Shown: positions 12,526-62,151 of the stretch, piece after piece
Layout of the letters: every line of letters begins with the position of its first letter
Numbering within the stretch: the first letter of the stretch is position 1
DNA from: Alphaproteobacteria bacterium
GTDB lineage: Bacteria; Pseudomonadota; Alphaproteobacteria; Bin95
Direction: 5' to 3'
DNA: 64,000 bases
Assembly: GCA_963665325.3 (NCBI GenBank)
Contig: CAXXWS020000003.1
Coordinates: forward strand, 288,001 to 352,000
Notes under the pieces: generated by a model
Databases searched by the model: none
What the model was told of the DNA's origin: nothing
The model's input: the letters and a program-made list of their open reading frames with translations, nothing else
Made by a program: the position numbers and the translations under genes

Positions 12526-12768
12526 TCAGGCCAGAAGCCAGCCGAGCAGCGTGCGGTTGCCTTCCACAACCTCCGTCCAGAACTGCCACGGCCAGAGCCA
12601 GAGCCGCATGAAGGCCCACAAGGCCGCACCGCCCAGCGCGGGGCCGAATTCGCCCGGCCCGAGGCCGTGGACGACATGAACGAACATGCGCGAAAAGCCT
12701 GCGACCAGCCCCAGCAGGAAGCCGATGCCCAGATAAAGCGACAGAATGCGGCGCAACAGTCTCAGCAT
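12526..12768 (-). CDS. Small hypothetical membrane protein
   Basis: 80 aa with two hydrophobic segments and a Trp-rich C-terminal part. Host-like GC. Confidence 0.55.
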   Translation of the reverse strand: MLRLLRRILSLYLGIGFLLGLVAGFSRMFVHVVHGLGPGEFGPALGGAALWAFMRLWLWPWQFWTEVVEGNRTLLGWLLA

Positions 12769-12796
12769 GGCAGGCGGCTTACTTTCAGCGCACCGC

Positions 12797-13354
12797 CTAT
12801 TCCTTCATACTTTTCGCTTGCTCCCGTAGTCTGTCGATCTCCTCTACCGCCCTTATGGCTTCCTGAACCGGGATATGTCTCTTGAGTTCAACCAATCTCC
12901 GCGCCGCGTTGTCGACAGACAGCTGCAGCCCCTCTTCCTTCTCCTTTATGCGTACGTAAAGCGCCGTGGCCAATTTTTCCAACTCCATTACTCCTTTTGC
13001 TCCAACAGCGTTGGCGGCAAATGCAAGCCTATTCTCATATCTCCCAAGAGTCTTAGGAAACAGCTTCTGAACATTTTCAGCTTGCTCAGTGTTTTCCATA
13101 CTAGGGCCATAAAACCCTCTTGGCTGCAGAGCAATTACCGCATCCGCGCGGAGAGCAGTCAATTCGTCCCTCAGATCAAAAGAAAACGGGCCATGTTTAT
13201 AAAGAATGAATTTATATCCCAATGGCACTTGCGCCAAGGCTTGCAAAATATAGACCGCCTTTTGCAAATGAGTCTCTCCGCGCCAACTTTCCTGCTGCTT
13301 CAACCGGTCTATGAGACGGGTGAGAAGCGCTCCTCTCCTAACTCTGTCCACCAT
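12797..13354 (-). CDS. YwgA/Panacea(SocA)-like protein
   Basis: GETHLQKAVYILQ...LGYKFILYKHGPFSFDL and ELEKLATALY motifs. Overlaps the HD gene end by 17 bp. Low GC. Confidence 0.7.
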   Translation of the reverse strand: MVDRVRRGALLTRLIDRLKQQESWRGETHLQKAVYILQALAQVPLGYKFILYKHGPFSFDLRDELTALRADAVIALQPRGFYGPSMENTEQAENVQKLFPKTLGRYENRLAFAANAVGAKGVMELEKLATALYVRIKEKEEGLQLSVDNAARRLVELKRHIPVQEAIRAVEEIDRLREQAKSMKE

Positions 13355-14654
13355 TCTCCTCCTTCACTGGCTCGATGACTTTGCTGAGATTACCGTCTAA
13401 CCAACCCTTTGCTTCCAGAAAACAAGATCTATCGGCGAACACATAATCAACGGAAACTACCGGCACCTGATTGAGAGCAGTCGAAACAACCAGAGACGAA
13501 ACTACACGATCATCGCGCATCCGAACCGGGAAATCAGGACCTCCTCCCTTTTGATTGTATCTATCGTGGCGAAATTTGTGATCGCCAAATTCTTCCTTTA
13601 GTGCTCGATAAACTTGTTCACCCGCTTCCTGATTTATCGCTACATCTGCCGGATTTCTTTGATAAATCACCTTGAAATGCTTGCGTCGAACTAAGCGTTT
13701 CGCATGCAAATACCCTTTTGCGCATTTGTTGATTGATTGATTCCACAAAGCAGAAATTATTGTTTCATCCGTTAAAGCGATATGCTTGTCAAGATCAATT
13801 GAAAACACACCATTATCGAGCCACTGTTTTAGAAAATCCATTAGATGAATATCGTAAATCCTGCGTACGGGATGAAAATAAACTTGGGAATACATAAAGT
13901 ATCGAGCAAGCATAAGGGCCTCAGCTGACTGCAAACCACCTTCTTCCATACCAAGAGAAGGTTCACCTGTATCAGGTGATTGCAAAATACGCAACGTATC
14001 TATCAATCTATAATGGTCAAATTTTCCGTATGCAACTCCTGCATGATATGAATCTCTAAGCAGATAATCCATGCGGTCAACGCCAAAAGCATCTCCAACA
14101 ATAATTTCGGACAAAATTGATTCCCAGTCTGAAAATACCAGATCGTCTGCCTTTTGAGGCCCTATAGCGAGTTTCACTATATCTTCGCTGCGTAGCGGCG
14201 GTGTAACTGACTTCCAAATCTCTTCCATTTCGCGGCTGGAAATAAGCTCTCGTGTTAATCGTTCGTGATCCCAACCTTCGGGCAAGAGCTCTTTCTCGGC
14301 GGCATGAGAGAACGGCAAATGTCCTATATCGTGACAAAGGGCTGCCATTCGGATGATTCGTTTCCAATAAGCACATGCGTCTGGTCGTGAAATATGTTCC
14401 AGTCGACTCTTGATTGCTTCAGAGACGTTATCTGGGTTTGTGACGACATCGAACACCCGGCCGGCAAGGTCCATAACACCGAGGGAATGCTCAAACCGGC
14501 GATGTGTCGCGCCCGGATAAACCAGATAGGTCGTTGCAAGCTGGTGAACATGCCGCAGCCGTTGAAACGGGCGGGAGTCCAGCACCTTTCGTTCATCACC
14601 ATCCATGCGGATGAATATATGGATGGGGTCCCTGATTTCATGTATGTGCTGCAT
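13338..14654 (-). CDS. SAMHD1/YwfO-like HD-domain phosphohydrolase (putative dNTP triphosphohydrolase)
   Basis: IRDPIH, FQRLRHVHQL, YPGATHRRFEHSLGV, AALCHDIGHLPFSH, WDHE, VDRMDYLLRD, MYSQVYFH. ATG 14654 chosen over the ORF-track start. Confidence 0.92.
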   Translation of the reverse strand: MQHIHEIRDPIHIFIRMDGDERKVLDSRPFQRLRHVHQLATTYLVYPGATHRRFEHSLGVMDLAGRVFDVVTNPDNVSEAIKSRLEHISRPDACAYWKRIIRMAALCHDIGHLPFSHAAEKELLPEGWDHERLTRELISSREMEEIWKSVTPPLRSEDIVKLAIGPQKADDLVFSDWESILSEIIVGDAFGVDRMDYLLRDSYHAGVAYGKFDHYRLIDTLRILQSPDTGEPSLGMEEGGLQSAEALMLARYFMYSQVYFHPVRRIYDIHLMDFLKQWLDNGVFSIDLDKHIALTDETIISALWNQSINKCAKGYLHAKRLVRRKHFKVIYQRNPADVAINQEAGEQVYRALKEEFGDHKFRHDRYNQKGGGPDFPVRMRDDRVVSSLVVSTALNQVPVVSVDYVFADRSCFLEAKGWLDGNLSKVIEPVKEENGGQS

Positions 14655-14798
14655 CGGCGGAGCATGGCCGGGGGCGGGCAGGGCATTGGATTGAGCCGGC
14701 ACACTCGATCCAAGAAGGATGTTGAAGGGTTTCGGACGCGACCGCAAGACGGGCACGTGCCTTGAACGGCATGCGAAACACCGTTACCAGACACCCCC

Positions 14799-15290
14799 AT
14801 GACCGCCATGACCCTGGTGCTCGGCGGCGCCGCCTCCGGCAAGAGCCGTTACGCCGAATCGCTGTTTGACGGACCCGCCGTCTATATCGCCACGGCCGAG
14901 GCCGGCGACGCCGAAATGGCGGACCGCATCGCCCGGCACCGTGCCCGGCGGGGCGCTTGCTGGACAACCGTCGAGGCGCCTTGCCGACTGCCGGAAGCGC
15001 TGGCGAACGCCCGCGACATACCGGCGCTGGCGGACTGCCTGACGCTCTGGCTTTCCAACGCGCTCGCCGCCGGCCGGGAGCCCGATACCGAAGCGCTGCT
15101 GGCCGCCGTCGTCGGCCGCAACCGCCAGACGGTGCTGGTCTCGAACGAGACCGGCATGGGCCTCGTGCCCTCAACGCCTCTCGGCCGCCGCTTTCGCGAT
15201 GCCCAGGGGCAGTTGAACGAAGAGGTCGCCCGCGTCGCGGACCGGGTCGTGTTCGTGGCGGCCGGCCTGCCGCTCGTGCTCAAGCCCTGA
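14799..15290 (+). CDS. cobU: Adenosylcobinamide kinase/adenosylcobinamide-phosphate guanylyltransferase (CobU/CobP)
   Basis: GGAASGKS, RIARHRARR, DCLTLWLSN, VSNETGMG, RRFRD, AGLPL. Confidence 0.95.
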   Translation: MTAMTLVLGGAASGKSRYAESLFDGPAVYIATAEAGDAEMADRIARHRARRGACWTTVEAPCRLPEALANARDIPALADCLTLWLSNALAAGREPDTEALLAAVVGRNRQTVLVSNETGMGLVPSTPLGRRFRDAQGQLNEEVARVADRVVFVAAGLPLVLKP

Positions 15291-15301
15291 AGGCGCCGAT
15301 C

Positions 15302-27865: not shown

Positions 27866-29002
27866 TTAAGCGCCGGGTATATCCCGCAGCATGGCGCGGG
27901 CGATCTGCTGCTGCTGGATCTGCGAGGTGCCTTCGAAGATGCGGAACAGCCGCGTGTCGCGGTAGAGGCGGGCGACGGCGTTCCCGGCCATATAGCCCTG
28001 CCCGCCGAGGATCTGGACCGCCTTGTCGGCGACCCGGCTCACCATTTCGGAGGCGAAATACTTGGCGCAGGCAATGTCCGCAAAGGGCAGCGGGCGCTGT
28101 TCGAACCGCCGGGCGCAGTCCAGCACCATCGCCTCGGCCGCATAGGTGTCGGCGCGCATGTCGGCGAGCATCGCCTGCACGAGCTGGTGCTCGCTGATGG
28201 CCTTGCCGAACTGGCGGCGCTCACGGGCATAGCGCACCGCCTCGACGACCAGCCGCTTCGCCTGCCCGACGCAGGTGGCGGCGACATGGGTGCGCGCATG
28301 GTTGATGCCGCGCAGCGCCGCCTTGAGCCCGAGCCCCTCCTGCCCCCCGACCAGCGCGTCCCCGGGCACCCGGCAGTCCTCCAGATAGACCTCCGAGACC
28401 CTGGACCCGCGGTGCCCCATCATCTCGACGGGCTCGCCCGCGCGAATGCCCGGCGTGCCGGCATCGACGGCGAAGGCCGAGACGCCGCCGGCGCCCGGCC
28501 CGCCCGTGCGCGCCATGACCAGGAACATGTCGGCGTCCGCCGCGTTGGTGATGTAGCGCTTGGTGCCGTTCAGCACATAGTCCGCGCCGTCGCGCACGGC
28601 CGTCGTCGCGAGGTTCGCCGCGTCGGAGCCGTAGTCGGGCTCGGTCAGCGAGAAGGCGCCGGTGCAGCGGCCTTCCGCCATGGCGGGCAGGTATTTCAGC
28701 TTCTGCGCCTCCGTGGCGAAGTCGAGGAGCGCCTGGCTGCAGAGCCCGATCGTGGTCGAGAAGCGCGCGCGGAACACGGCCGAGGCCCGGGTGAAGGCGA
28801 AGGTGAGCCGCACCTGCTGCTCCTGGCTGAGGCCGAGCCCTCCGTATTCCTCCGGGATCGAGATGGCGAAGAGGCGCATCTCGCAAATCCGCCGCACAAG
28901 GTCCTCGGGCACATGGCCCAGCTCTTCCACGCGTTCCTCGCTGGGAATCAGCTCCTCGCGCGTGAACGCCTCGACCTGGGCCAGATAAGCCTCGAAATCC
29001 AT
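27866..29002 (-). CDS. Acyl-CoA dehydrogenase family protein
   Basis: IPEEYGG, FSLTEPDYGSD, LNGTKRYITN, RRQFGK, GGQGY, RIFEGTSQIQ. Confidence 0.94.
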   Translation of the reverse strand: MDFEAYLAQVEAFTREELIPSEERVEELGHVPEDLVRRICEMRLFAISIPEEYGGLGLSQEQQVRLTFAFTRASAVFRARFSTTIGLCSQALLDFATEAQKLKYLPAMAEGRCTGAFSLTEPDYGSDAANLATTAVRDGADYVLNGTKRYITNAADADMFLVMARTGGPGAGGVSAFAVDAGTPGIRAGEPVEMMGHRGSRVSEVYLEDCRVPGDALVGGQEGLGLKAALRGINHARTHVAATCVGQAKRLVVEAVRYARERRQFGKAISEHQLVQAMLADMRADTYAAEAMVLDCARRFEQRPLPFADIACAKYFASEMVSRVADKAVQILGGQGYMAGNAVARLYRDTRLFRIFEGTSQIQQQQIARAMLRDIPGA

Positions 29003-29112
29003 GCCGTTACCCAAAGTCGTCGCCCCCCGCACACCCCGGAAGGCGTCATGATATGTCATGTTTTGTCATGAGGCCCGCCGGAAATGTCATGTTTGGAGAT
29101 TACAAAGATGAC

Positions 29113-29141
29113 TTGGCATTTTCTACCGGACTCCCTATATT
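29113..29141 (+). promoter_or_regulatory. Transposase promoter TTGGCA-N17-TATATT overlapping the left IR
   Basis: Hexamers and 17-bp spacer read directly, 27 bp upstream of the transposase ATG. Confidence 0.6.
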
Positions 29142-29167
29142 CCAAGGTGTTGAAGGGGAGAGCAGTC

Positions 29168-30145
29168 ATGGCGAAGAGCGCACCCGGAAAGGCCCACCGC
29201 GAAGGACTCACCATCGTCGAGTTGATGGATATGTTCCCGACCGAGGAAGCCGCGTCGGACTGGTTCGAGTCGGTGATTTGGCCGGACGGTCGGCACTGTC
29301 CGAAATGCGGTTGTGCGGAGACGCGCGAGGTTCCGAACGCGAAACCGATGCCTTACTGGTGCAAGGACTGTCGATCTTACTTCTCGGTGAAGACCGGAAC
29401 CGCCATGCAGCGGTCGAAAATCCCGCTCCGCAAGTGGGCAATCGCCATCTATCTCTGCCTTACTTCGCTCAAGTCGGTTTCGTCGATGAAGCTGCAACGC
29501 GACATCGGAGTTTCGCAGCCGACCGCATGGTTCATGCTTCACCGCATCCGGCAGGCATGGGCGGTTGACGACGACGACCAGTTTGACGGCCCTGTAGAGG
29601 TCGATGAGAGTTACTTCGGCGGTCGCCAAGCGAACATGCCGAAGGCAAAGCGCAAGACGCTCGCGGGCGGTGGCACGGCCCATATGACGGCAGTTAGCGG
29701 CGCGAAGGATCGCGACAGCAACGAAGTCCGGGCGGAAGTCATAACCGATACGACCAAGCCGACCTTGCAGGGTATTGTGCGCGAGCATGTCGAGCCCGGC
29801 GCGGCCGTCTATACCGACGAGCACCGCAGCTATGTCGGACTCGATGCGGATTTTGACCATGGAACGGTCAATCATCGCGTTGGCGAGTATGTGGACGGCA
29901 TGATCCACACCAACGGCATGGTGAGCTTCTGGGCCATGCTCAAGCGGGCACACAAGGGCACCTTCCACAAGATCAGCCCGAAACATCTTGAGCGTTATGT
30001 CGATGACTTTGCGGGCAAGCATAATCACTGCGAATCAGGCACCCTTGCCCAAATGCGGGATACCGTCGCCCGGCTCGTCGGCCGCCGGCTTCTCTACCGC
30101 GACCTTATCGCGGACAACGGGCTTTCGTCGGGTTCCGGGGCGTAG
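29168..30145 (+). CDS. IS1595 family transposase (third catalytic residue apparently Glu>Val)
   Basis: Zn ribbon CPKC...CKDC, SKIPLRKW, HTH TAWFMLHRIR, VEVDESYFGG, YTDE, HTNGMVSFWAMLKR. Confidence 0.95.
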   Translation: MAKSAPGKAHREGLTIVELMDMFPTEEAASDWFESVIWPDGRHCPKCGCAETREVPNAKPMPYWCKDCRSYFSVKTGTAMQRSKIPLRKWAIAIYLCLTSLKSVSSMKLQRDIGVSQPTAWFMLHRIRQAWAVDDDDQFDGPVEVDESYFGGRQANMPKAKRKTLAGGGTAHMTAVSGAKDRDSNEVRAEVITDTTKPTLQGIVREHVEPGAAVYTDEHRSYVGLDADFDHGTVNHRVGEYVDGMIHTNGMVSFWAMLKRAHKGTFHKISPKHLERYVDDFAGKHNHCESGTLAQMRDTVARLVGRRLLYRDLIADNGLSSGSGA

Positions 30146-30241
30146 CGGCTCCGTCCTACGAAATAGCGCCTTCGCCAGCGTCTCCGGCGTAGCGCCCACC
30201 AAGTCGCGGACCGGGTCCAGTATCGGAACACCTTTCGTCAT
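30035..30241 (-). CDS. Small hypothetical protein (68 aa) convergently overlapping the transposase 3' end
   Basis: GGAGG six nt before the ATG. Reads MTKGVPILDPVRDLVGATPETLAKALFRR. Confidence 0.55.
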   Translation of the reverse strand: MTKGVPILDPVRDLVGATPETLAKALFRRTEPLRPGTRRKPVVRDKVAVEKPAADEPGDGIPHLGKGA

Positions 30242-30462
30242 TTTCAGCCTCCGTTGACTCTCTGCGTTGATTCGGACGACCATCCTTCTTTCACCAATTC
30301 AAGCGCCCCGCTCTGTCGGGTCGCCTGCTGAATACAACAGCCTGACCCGGCAAGGGGGTTGCTCCCCGCGCTTGGCGAATAGGCGGGACTCTCCATTCGC
30401 TTGGATTGGTGCAACGGCCCGACGCCAGCCGGCGGCCGGGAACGAGCGGAAGGGCGATCCCG

Positions 30463-30948
30463 ATGAAGAAGCTCGTTGCGGCCTGCGCCGCAGCCATCAC
30501 CATTTATTCGGCACAGGGCCAAGCCCAGACGATCTCCAAGGACGAATATCGGGACAAGGTCCTCGTCCTGTTCGAGGAGTTCCTGCAAATGAAGACGGAT
30601 GGCGTCTTCCTGGACCAAGCGACGATCAAGGCGCTCGGACGAAACTTCAAATTCCCGAACGCCATCCGAGGCAACAATCCCCCCGGCGGGTGGTTTGCCC
30701 GCCCACCTGGTAGCGATTGGGTCAAGCGCGTCGAGGCCCTCGATGACACCGGTCACAAGTTCGTTTGCTTCGACATTCCGGCGCTGCCCAGCGAGTCGGG
30801 GGTCTGCGGTTTCGACTTGGTGTCGCTCCACACCGGTATTCTCGATCAAGGAGCGGTCAGCTTTCTCGATGCGCTTGCAGCGAAGTTCTGGCTCGCCACC
30901 ATCTGCCACCGGACCCCGGCAGCGTGCGAGCGTTACATCGACGACTAA
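30463..30948 (+). CDS. Hypothetical secreted protein (IS passenger)
   Basis: Signal peptide MKKLVAACAAAITIYSAQGQA. Four Cys in the mature part. Confidence 0.7.
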   Translation: MKKLVAACAAAITIYSAQGQAQTISKDEYRDKVLVLFEEFLQMKTDGVFLDQATIKALGRNFKFPNAIRGNNPPGGWFARPPGSDWVKRVEALDDTGHKFVCFDIPALPSESGVCGFDLVSLHTGILDQGAVSFLDALAAKFWLATICHRTPAACERYIDD

Positions 30949-31004
30949 CGCGCCGACATGTTCACCAAGCTCAATGCGGCCATCGACTGCGTGGACAAGC
31001 AGCA

Positions 31005-60987: not shown

Positions 60988-62151
60988 ATGAACGCCCCGC
61001 TTGCGCCTTACGCCGCCTCGCCGTCGGACGTGCGGGGCCGGCGCTATCCGGAACCGGAGTCCGGCGACCGCACGCCGTTCCAGCGCGACCGCGACCGCAT
61101 CCTCCATTCCACCGCATTCCGCCGCCTGCAATACAAGACCCAGGTCTTCGTCTGCGACGAGGGCGACCACTATCGCAGCCGGCTGACGCACTCGCTCGAA
61201 GTCGGCCAGATCGCGCGCGGCATCTGCCGGAGCCTCGCGCTCGAGGAAACGCTGGCCGAGACGCTGGCGCTGGCGCACGACCTCGGCCACACCCCCTTCG
61301 GCCATGCGGGCGAAGCCGCGCTGGCTGCGGCGCTCGGCGGCTTCGGAGGCTTCGACCACAATGTGCAGACGCTGCGCATCGTCACCCGGCTGGAGGCCCG
61401 CTACGCCGCTTTCGACGGCCTCAACCTGACCTGGGAGACGCTGGAGGGCCTTGCCAAGCATAACGGGCCGGTCGCGCCCGGCGCCGTTCCGGCGCCCATT
61501 GCCAACCTGGATTGCGAGCTTGGGCTCCGGCTCGATGAGTGGCCGGGACTCGAAGCGCAGGCCGCCGCGCTCGCCGACGACATCGCCTACAATAACCACG
61601 ATATCGACGACGGCGTGCGCGCCGGGCTGATAGACCTCGACGACCTGCACGACCTGCCCCTGTTCGGGACCGCGCTGGCAGAGGTGGAAGGGTGCTACGG
61701 AAAGCTGCCGCCGGCGCGCCTCATCCACGAGACAGTGCGCCGGGGGGTGCGCGCCATGGTGGCCGACACGGTGGGCGAGACCCGCCGGCGGCTCGCCGAG
61801 ACCCGGCCCGAGAGCGCCGACGATGTCCGCAGGGCAGGCCGGCCGCTGGTCGCCTTTTCGGATTCCATGGCGGAGGCGGAGCAGGCGCTCAAGAGCTTCC
61901 TGCACAAGCGGCTCTACCGCCATCCGCATGTGGCGGCGGAGACCGAGCAGGCAGGGGTCGTGGTGACGGATCTGTTCCGTTCACTCTTTGCCCGGCCCGA
62001 GGCGCTGCCCCCGGAATGGCAGAGCCGCACGGACAGCGCAAACGCCTGTCGGACGGCGCGCGTCGTGGCGGACTATATTGCCGGCATGACCGACCGCTAC
62101 GCATTCCGGGAACACGCCCGCCTCTGCAATGGAGACCGGCGACCGCGATGA
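60988..62151 (+). CDS. dgt: Deoxyguanosinetriphosphate triphosphohydrolase
   Basis: [50 protein letters not shown]. Confidence 0.95.

Follow-up and report, generated by a model that had tools for sequence, protein, structure and literature searches.

The 64,000-nucleotide stretch of DNA considered here (the window; Alphaproteobacteria bacterium, contig CAXXWS020000003.1, positions 288,001 to 352,000) carries, close to cobU, an island of low guanine-plus-cytosine (GC) content with two overlapping genes, encoding an HD-domain phosphohydrolase related to SAMHD1 (the HD protein) and a protein with the predicted fold of the toxin-binding domain of the antitoxin DarG (the small protein). On the available evidence we put it at an even chance that the pair is a toxin-antitoxin-like defence working by nucleotide depletion. 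The case is built on computed features, i.e. the folds and motifs of both proteins, the strict pairing of their genes, their accessory status, transfer between lineages, placement in a hotspot for defence genes, a predicted complex and an asymmetric pattern of decay. In the mechanism proposed, a mobile, self-contained two-gene module would function as toxin-antitoxin pairs of type II or abortive-defence pairs do: the HD protein, if unrestrained, would act as a triphosphohydrolase, most likely on deoxynucleoside triphosphates (dNTPs), and would starve DNA synthesis; the co-translated small protein would bind to the C-terminal lobe of the enzyme and keep it off; and a phage cue, or loss of the partner, would set the enzyme free. 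The substrate, an inhibitory (rather than activating or sensing) role of the small protein, toxicity and protection against phage are all putative elements of this scheme. In a broader proposal, to which we give somewhat less than an even chance, such pairs would make up an immune module as yet without a name and widespread among bacteria and archaea: a stand-alone DarG-domain (Panacea-like) protein would keep a dNTPase of the SAMHD1 type inactive until infection releases it.

By sequence and predicted structure the HD protein is a SAMHD1/EF1143-type HD phosphohydrolase with intact catalytic motifs, as an earlier reading of the window made without database searches (the sequence-only reading) had supposed. 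The Pfam families HD (3e-8) and HD_assoc_2 (1.4e-14) are both matched above their cut-offs; sequence matches in the PDB include Aquifex 2HEK (3e-58), EF1143 (2o6i; 1e-31), 9mr6 (2e-25) and SAMHD1 (~1e-23); and Foldseek, run with a model of predicted local distance difference test (pLDDT) score 86.9, returned 2hek with an E value of 1e-22 and template-modelling (TM) scores of 0.75/0.89, with EF1143 and SAMHD1 superimposing over the whole core at TM 0.72-0.75. The FQRLR, RFEHSLGV, HDIGHLPFSH and VDRMDYLLRD motifs have aligned counterparts in EF1143 and SAMHD1, and R53, H56, H108, D109, H112, H117, D193, D196, Y197, R200 and D201 are invariant in 25 homologues. By family resemblance, dNTP hydrolysis is the most likely activity; 2HEK, the nearest solved relative, is deposited as a hypothetical protein. 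Assignment to the Dgt-type anti-phage dGTPases was considered and rejected, the models of those families scoring far below their cut-offs: the PADLOC dGTPase model reached only 35 bits, over residues 19-123 (105 residues), the NCBIfam model antiphage_dGTPase (NF041026) 20.7 bits against a cut-off of 400, and TIGR01353 32.6 bits against a cut-off of 152.

The small protein is predicted, with a model pLDDT of 95, to comprise a winged helix followed by a helical part, and at the level of this model it is homologous to the DarT-binding C-terminal domain of DarG. Foldseek matched it to the DarG chains of the DarTG complex 7yk3 (E 7e-5, TM 0.68), and VIA-align superimposed it over its whole length on 7yk3_D (Z 17.0 over 167 residues, root-mean-square deviation 3.6), the next-best match being a generic winged helix at Z 9.4. 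Profile searches agree, in that the PADLOC DarG model is matched at 7e-9 over profile positions 166-311 of 329, and the NCBIfam model antitoxin_DarG at 8.5e-8 in its C-terminal part, with 31.8 bits against a cut-off of 250. The C-terminal domain of DarG binds and inhibits the toxin DarT, according to the available text of PMC13621843 and PMC8832971, the first of which also describes DUF4065 (Panacea) proteins as homologous to this domain. Since PF13274 (SocA_Panacea, DUF4065) matches none of 25 members of the small-protein family at E<=1, the link of the small protein to Panacea is only indirect; thus the earlier description of the partner as Panacea-like holds at the level of fold and superfamily and fails at that of the Pfam family. 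One neighbouring cluster in the Atlas carries PF13274 in 13% of its members, which may serve as a lead. No Pfam family was matched by the small protein at E<=0.01 or by any of 24 relatives, a PDB sequence search gave nothing at E<=1, matches in PHROGs were weak and to families of unknown function, and the match to the PADLOC model PDC-M19A (1.2e-6) is confined to the N-terminal 70 residues. Distant paralogues of the small protein occur elsewhere in genomes of the genus (L009:1357-2010 in G014 and L007:1054-2022 in G008), that in L009 being recognised by hhalign with a probability of 96% and an E value of 1.9e-9; as a bridge to Panacea they were rejected, neither having a Pfam family.

The two genes are conserved as a pair in many phyla and in archaea. 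When about 185,000 species genomes were scanned, one genome per species, 406 stretches were found to encode a relative of the small protein and at least 572 a relative of the HD protein. A collection at 90% identity holds 1,957 relatives of the small protein, with about 50% identity across phyla, and a profile search gave 1,917 clusters at 50% identity (404 with E<=1e-30), nearly all about 180 residues long. Two sets of loci were compared, 80 found via the small gene and 80 via the HD gene (62 new and 18 shared, so 142 distinct places); they derive mostly from metagenome bins, many of them long-read, and lack phylogenetic independence. In 78/80 loci of the first set the HD gene is immediately upstream of the small gene; in 74 of the 76 loci of the second set with an intact HD gene a complete small gene follows directly, in the other two it is split, and none of the 76 lacks it. 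The gap between the two tblastn matches is mostly between -13 and +29 nucleotides. A more distant type of pair, with small proteins 25-31% and enzymes 35-41% identical, has the same gene order and was paired in 7/7 loci, and no third conserved gene recurs around the homologous pairs. Three longer proteins, two of them with HD_assoc_2, were considered as fused forms and set aside, being singletons that could be artefacts of frameshifts. In G062, a genome from another phylum (L110 and L122), there are two copies of the small gene, one of the close type, with no HD gene in the available 1 kb upstream, and one of the distant type with an HD gene. The one match to the small protein among plasmid records (L123; Methanomethylovorans NC_019972.1, 236475-237020) has 28% identity and lies behind a DNA polymerase gene, with no HD gene.

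By distribution, composition and phylogeny the pair is an accessory, horizontally spread two-gene module, present in many phyla, including methanogenic and methanotrophic archaea. Its occurrence is patchy: an occupied site was seen in 2/16 other genomes of the genus; searches with the window's proteins detected no orthologue in two other genera of the family (20 genomes) or in the class's other families (24 genomes; 0/44 elsewhere in the class); and the pair was present in 12/201 genomes of another phylum. Its GC content is below that of the flanks in 72/74 loci, by a median of 8 points. In a FastTree phylogeny of 56 HD proteins there are 22 changes of phylum (minimum 10; mean of shuffled trees 32), with archaea nested among bacteria, and the window's copy is nearest to those of Bryobacterales, Latescibacterota and an alphaproteobacterial bin; because bins can be contaminated, single placements of this kind are weak, but the overall mixing of phyla stands.

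Within the genus the island is an insertion and is polymorphic. Its flanks are joined at an empty site in 11/16 other genomes (G001, G002, G004, G005, G006, G008, G009, G011, G012, G013 and G016), sequence equivalent to about 12759-12778 continuing into that of about 14742-14759 with some 45-65 nucleotides between, which confirms that the pair was inserted just before cobU. The same site is occupied in two genomes, G007, with identities of 92% for the HD protein and 84% for the small protein, and G014, with 75% and 56%; the remaining three could not be judged, owing to a contig end (G015), a left flank outside the locus (G003) or the lack of a cobU match (G010). Occupied and empty forms are both present in public metagenome assemblies. 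A contig from run X8 connects 12769 with 14759 through 68 other letters (side 255), alongside island contigs of lower depth, and in run X3 a contig of depth 10.7 joins 12778 to 14759 (side 30, borderline), alongside an occupied contig of depth 25.7. Both genes are under purifying selection, the ratio of nonsynonymous to synonymous divergence (dN/dS) between the window's genome and G007 being 0.065 for the HD gene and 0.092 for the small gene. An attempt to date the insertion from dS was set aside as ambiguous, the dS of the island being above that of the flanks both in the comparison with G007 (0.57-0.83 versus 0.34-0.44) and in that with G014 (2.3 or saturated versus 0.55-0.66), an excess for which the differing codon bias of island and flanks allows no clean interpretation. 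From one study, metatranscriptome runs X1 and X2 yielded three contigs of 152-296 nucleotides, 98-99% identical to the pair, one of which spans the start of the small gene, i.e. the junction between the genes, and none on the flanks; these give a weak hint of expression, carry-over of DNA or a near-identical island in another host being possible sources, and stretches that no contig covers carry no information.

A direct complex of the HD protein with the small protein is predicted, the score being 0.85 (0.84-0.86 in three runs) as against 0.00 for the best of three controls. The mark set for the tool is reached by 58/80 solved complexes and by 2/110 mismatched pairs, a calibration that holds only roughly here because the author's own alignments were used. 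In the predicted complex the partner has a pLDDT of 88, and at least 90% of the contacts recur between runs. The interface would involve residues 48-84 (a conserved stretch), 91-102 and 122-126 of the small protein, and, on the enzyme, the C-terminal lobe (335-343, 367-401 and 429-434) together with loops 166-179 and 227-233. Invariant residues of the small protein are enriched at this surface, its 41 interface residues including 14 of the 35, as against an expected 7.8 (p=0.006). The predicted site is outside the catalytic centre, and inhibition would therefore be allosteric or work via assembly.

The way in which the pairs decay is consistent with a partner that protects against the enzyme. 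Of the 77 assessable loci with an intact small gene, 9 have an HD gene that is partial or absent and another 8 have one split by a frameshift (three loci cut by contig ends are outside the 77), as against the two split and no missing small genes among the 76 loci with an intact HD gene. The asymmetry has Fisher p values of 0.003 and 0.0003, and of about 0.02 after correction for gene length; the counts include related loci, 18 places in both sets and long-read bins, in which frameshifts may be errors. Such a bias fits the expectation if the HD protein is harmful without its partner.

In 9/80 loci of each set, 14/142 distinct places in all (the second set adding 5 new cases), the pair lies directly behind, and on the same strand as, a gene for an HmaA-like SNF2 helicase, with gaps of 12-26 nucleotides where measured; example matches are PADLOC HmaA at 2e-186 (SNF2 and NOV_C) and HmaB at 6e-114 (DUF1156 methylase). 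The hmaB gene follows directly in 6/9 and 5/9 of these loci in the two sets, and in five of the first set HmaC (DUF499) then follows. The embedded cases occupy at least four positions in the HD tree and include archaea, as well as lineages whose HmaA proteins are only 33-34% identical. The available text of PMC11232893 describes the space between hmaA and hmaB/hmaC as a hotspot for inserted defence systems (Septu, PARIS and Ppl), 66.5% of hma systems carrying insertions; Hma itself was proposed in PMC8565338 and re-read as a DUF499-centred, BREX-related system in PMC12839542, so far as the accessible parts of both papers go. Among 137 of 141 immediate neighbours (two of L001 and two of L035 were dropped, for size and duplication), the recurrent Hma families are DUF1156 (7), NOV_C (6) and SNF2 (4-5), and restriction-modification families comprise N6_N4_Mtase (3), HSDR_N (3), N6_Mtase (2), Methylase_S (2) and AAA_21 (2). 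The Hma embedding is the specific signal, and a general enrichment next to defence genes is no more than a possibility on these raw counts. PADLOC 2.0, one of the checks proposed by the sequence-only reading, has no model for the pair. In a Latescibacterota locus the gene directly upstream of the pair (L010:7765-8676; DUF5131) matches the PADLOC candidates PDC-M41B and PDC-M30B at about 1e-100, and in a Chromatiaceae bin (L080/L162) Hma-like helicase and methylase genes adjoin the pair on the opposite strand.

Several observations weigh against an immune role. The pair of the window is itself solitary between housekeeping genes (cobU, cobW, cobN, a dehydrogenase gene and queA), and no clear Hma system is present in this genome, where only generic helicase-level matches to HmaA were found, with a model that also matches in 11/14 control genomes. 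Most neighbours of the homologous pairs are ordinary genes, and neither integrase nor transposase is in the top 25 families of the 137 neighbours. Among 50,697 phage records nothing matches the small protein, and among 72,556 plasmid records there is a single match, distant and unpaired. Conservation is unusually high for defence genes (about 50% and 55-70% identity across phyla), the HD_assoc_2 family is also present in 9/14 control genomes, Bacillus subtilis included, and YwfO-type proteins are treated as core genes in Firmicutes in the parts available of PMC3814617 and PMC4993169. Invariant residues of the enzyme are depleted at the predicted interface (1 of 100 among 39 interface residues; 8.9 expected), and the lack of phylogenetic independence among the loci compared, mostly bins, must also be borne in mind. 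The housekeeping flanks, the high conservation of both proteins under strong purifying selection, the breadth of HD_assoc_2 and the near-absence of the small protein from records of mobile elements would all suit a regulated enzyme of the nucleotide pool with no immune function, trimming dNTPs or damaged nucleotides, e.g. in non-growing cells, with the small protein as its regulatory subunit; YwfO, as far as the same two papers are accessible, co-evolves with PolC and is kept in a minimal genome. The pair would then be optional beside the housekeeping dgt, and the ywfO-ywgA neighbours of Firmicutes may be alike. We consider such a role unlikely, though worth taking seriously, as a patchy distribution with clean empty sites and both forms in public runs, a consistently foreign GC content, transfer between phyla and domains, repeated embedding in the Hma hotspot, a partner homologous to an antitoxin domain and asymmetric decay are all at odds with it.

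The Hma embedding can also be read differently, i.e. the pair may be an accessory of Hma/DUF499-type (BREX-related), restriction-like systems, serving as a back-up effector on nucleotides or nucleic acids, with the solitary copies as remnants or free-riders. The constancy of the order hmaA-HD gene-small gene-hmaB-hmaC, with its short gaps, in several distant lineages including archaea and at several places in the HD tree would be accounted for in this way. However, 128/142 distinct loci have no adjacent HmaA-like gene, no clear Hma system is present in the genome of the window, purifying selection acts on solitary copies and, in the available text of PMC11232893, the gap between hmaA and hmaB is known to take unrelated, independent defence systems, so that a role as Hma accessory appears improbable. 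Least probable of all, and by our estimate very much so, is that the small protein is a winged-helix transcription factor which autoregulates the operon and makes no contact with the enzyme. Its N-terminal half is indeed a generic winged helix, with Z values of 8-9.4 to regulators of the MarR and PadR types, but the whole-length match to the DarG domain is far stronger (Z 17), the complex with the enzyme is predicted with confidence relative to the null controls, and the predicted interface with the enzyme includes the conserved residues of the winged-helix region. Roles as regulator and as binder are compatible, repression of the own operon being common among antitoxins. As to a regulated nucleotide-depletion defence, the reading first made from the sequence and the one we prefer, it is supported by the enzyme family, the homology to an antitoxin domain, the predicted complex, mobility, the hotspot and decay, and is not supported by PF13274 or by the pair's own flanks; likewise a defence context is seen for those homologous pairs that lie in the Hma hotspot and not for the pair of the window, where the flanks are housekeeping.

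The pair can be compared with several known systems. The small protein resembles the C-terminal domain of DarG at the level of both whole-length fold and hidden Markov models; DarTG differs in that the pair has no macrodomain (the small protein having just 185 residues) and in that the partner gene encodes an HD hydrolase, in 78/80 loci, rather than the ADP-ribosyltransferase DarT. In DarTG the toxin gene lies upstream of the antitoxin gene, the same order as in the pair. The HD protein has in common with SAMHD1, EF1143 and Aquifex Aq_1910 (2HEK) the fold of the catalytic core and the FQRLR, RFEHSLGV, HD-GH-PFSH and D-DY--RD motifs, and none of these three is known to have a protein partner of this kind. 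With respect to Hma systems, the pair is not one of the three Hma proteins, and most loci with the pair have no Hma. Panacea-based toxin-antitoxin systems (PanAT), as described in the accessible text of PMC8832971, are similar in that a small antitoxin-type domain is paired with unrelated toxins and neutralises them by direct binding; the difference is that PF13274 matches none of the 25 members of the small-protein family, and the main text of that paper does not contain phosphohydrolase, SAMHD1, YwgA, 'HD domain' or dNTP.

Clover, judging from the available parts of PMC12265719, provides a functional parallel, since its dNTPase effector CloA is restrained via a neighbouring gene, cloB, and released on infection, as the enzyme of the pair may be. 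However, restraint in Clover is by p3diT, made by the nucleotidyltransferase CloB, whereas that in the pair would be by direct binding of a DarG-domain protein; CloA is of the Dgt type, and the partner in the pair is a winged-helix/helical DarG-domain protein and not a Pol-beta-type nucleotidyltransferase. The single-gene anti-phage dGTPases (10.1101/2021.04.26.441389; Vdg, PMC13519002), as far as those sources are accessible, are likewise nucleotide depleters of the HD superfamily, though of a different family from the HD protein. The ywfO-ywgA genes of B. subtilis are similar in that several homologues of the small protein are called 'uncharacterized protein YwgA' by the Joint Genome Institute (JGI) and in that B. 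subtilis has an HD_assoc_2 protein; they differ in that YwfO is treated as a core gene of Firmicutes, in the text available of PMC3814617, whereas the pair is accessory. A search of the literature gave no paper on the pair, although it might be listed in supplementary material, namely Tables S7-S9 of PMC11232893 or the list of Panacea toxins in PMC8832971. In its proposed action the pair would resemble both a nucleotide-depleting effector, as in the anti-phage dGTPases and Clover, and a type II toxin-antitoxin pair with a neutraliser of the DarG/Panacea type; as these families are defined, it belongs to neither.

Animals and bacteria both defend themselves by depleting nucleotides with SAMHD1-like enzymes, and it is an open question how cells restrain an enzyme so dangerous; the bacterial answers known include self-contained dGTPases and the inhibitory nucleotide of Clover. 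If the toxin-antitoxin-like reading of the pair is correct, a protein inhibitor derived from the DarG/Panacea antitoxin fold would be a third way to restrain a nucleotide-depleting enzyme, i.e. a protein-based solution to the problem that Clover solves with a nucleotide. The pair would then be the first toxin-antitoxin pair with a SAMHD1 homologue as toxin, the range of toxins neutralised by the DarG/Panacea fold would be widened, and a function would be provided for a family whose two genes stay together in at least 400 to 570 of the roughly 185,000 species genomes scanned. Being small (1.9 kb) and self-contained, the pair is easy to test.

The features of the locus are collected below.

Table 1. 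Features of the two-gene island, in window coordinates
Feature	Position	Strand	Basis
HD gene, 438 aa, putative (d)NTP triphosphohydrolase effector/toxin	13338..14654	-	SAMHD1/EF1143/2HEK-type, HD + HD_assoc_2
Small gene, 185 aa, putative binding partner/antitoxin	12797..13354	-	Winged-helix and helical parts, homologous (model level) to the DarG C-terminal domain
17-nt overlap, HD stop codon and small-gene start	13338..13354	-	Sequence
Leader/promoter region of the pair, up to the right junction with native sequence	14655..14758	-	Blocks conserved in the genus's three occupied sites
Whole inserted island, ~1.98 kb	12779..14758	.	Absent at relatives' empty sites; 47.7% GC vs 70.7% in 9.6 kb of flanks

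The locus as described in the sequence-only reading was confirmed. The two genes are co-directional and overlap, an arrangement that suggests translational coupling, and a recount of the spot GC values returned exactly the 20/60 (13741-13800) and 26/60 (13621-13680) reported. The start of the HD gene is placed at the ATG given in the table, and the longer GTG open reading frame that covers the gene (13338-14756, minus strand) was rejected, because the N termini of homologues fit that ATG; these begin M-x-K-x-x-HEIRDPIH, and in most loci the tblastn match sets in at query residues 1-6. No other 1.9-kb stretch of the window is as low in GC as the island (47%, as against a mean of 68.3%, standard deviation 3.8), and GC at third codon positions is 0.41 in the HD gene and 0.52 in the small gene, compared with 0.87 in cobU. 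The leader has conserved blocks common to the three occupied sites of the genus, and scans of the island for consensus promoters and terminators gave counts at chance level.

On the right, cobU (14799-15290, plus strand) is divergent from the HD gene, with cobW and cobN beyond; on the other side lie a small hydrophobic open reading frame, a beta-hydroxyacid dehydrogenase gene and queA. The separate housekeeping dgt that had been placed at 60988 is a true dgt (60988-62151), matching NF002328 with 509.7 bits against a cut-off of 467. The hydrophobic open reading frame, of 80 residues (12526-12768, minus strand), adjoins the island downstream; within the genus it is conserved as the island's left flank, and it has no NCBIfam family. 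An imperfect direct repeat of 15 nucleotides (13/15) is present at 12764-12778, where it ends at the left junction, and at 14661-14675, just upstream of the HD start. It could be due to chance or be the trace of an insertion or deletion event; as a target-site duplication it was rejected, since it could be chance and native sequence resumes further to the right. The distance between cobU and cobW, 10 nucleotides in the window (15290-15301), is about 730 nucleotides in G012 (L104/L108) and about 80 in G001. The second-lowest GC stretch of the window, at 28850-31000, has about 59.8% over 1.9 kb, compared with the mean of 68.3%.

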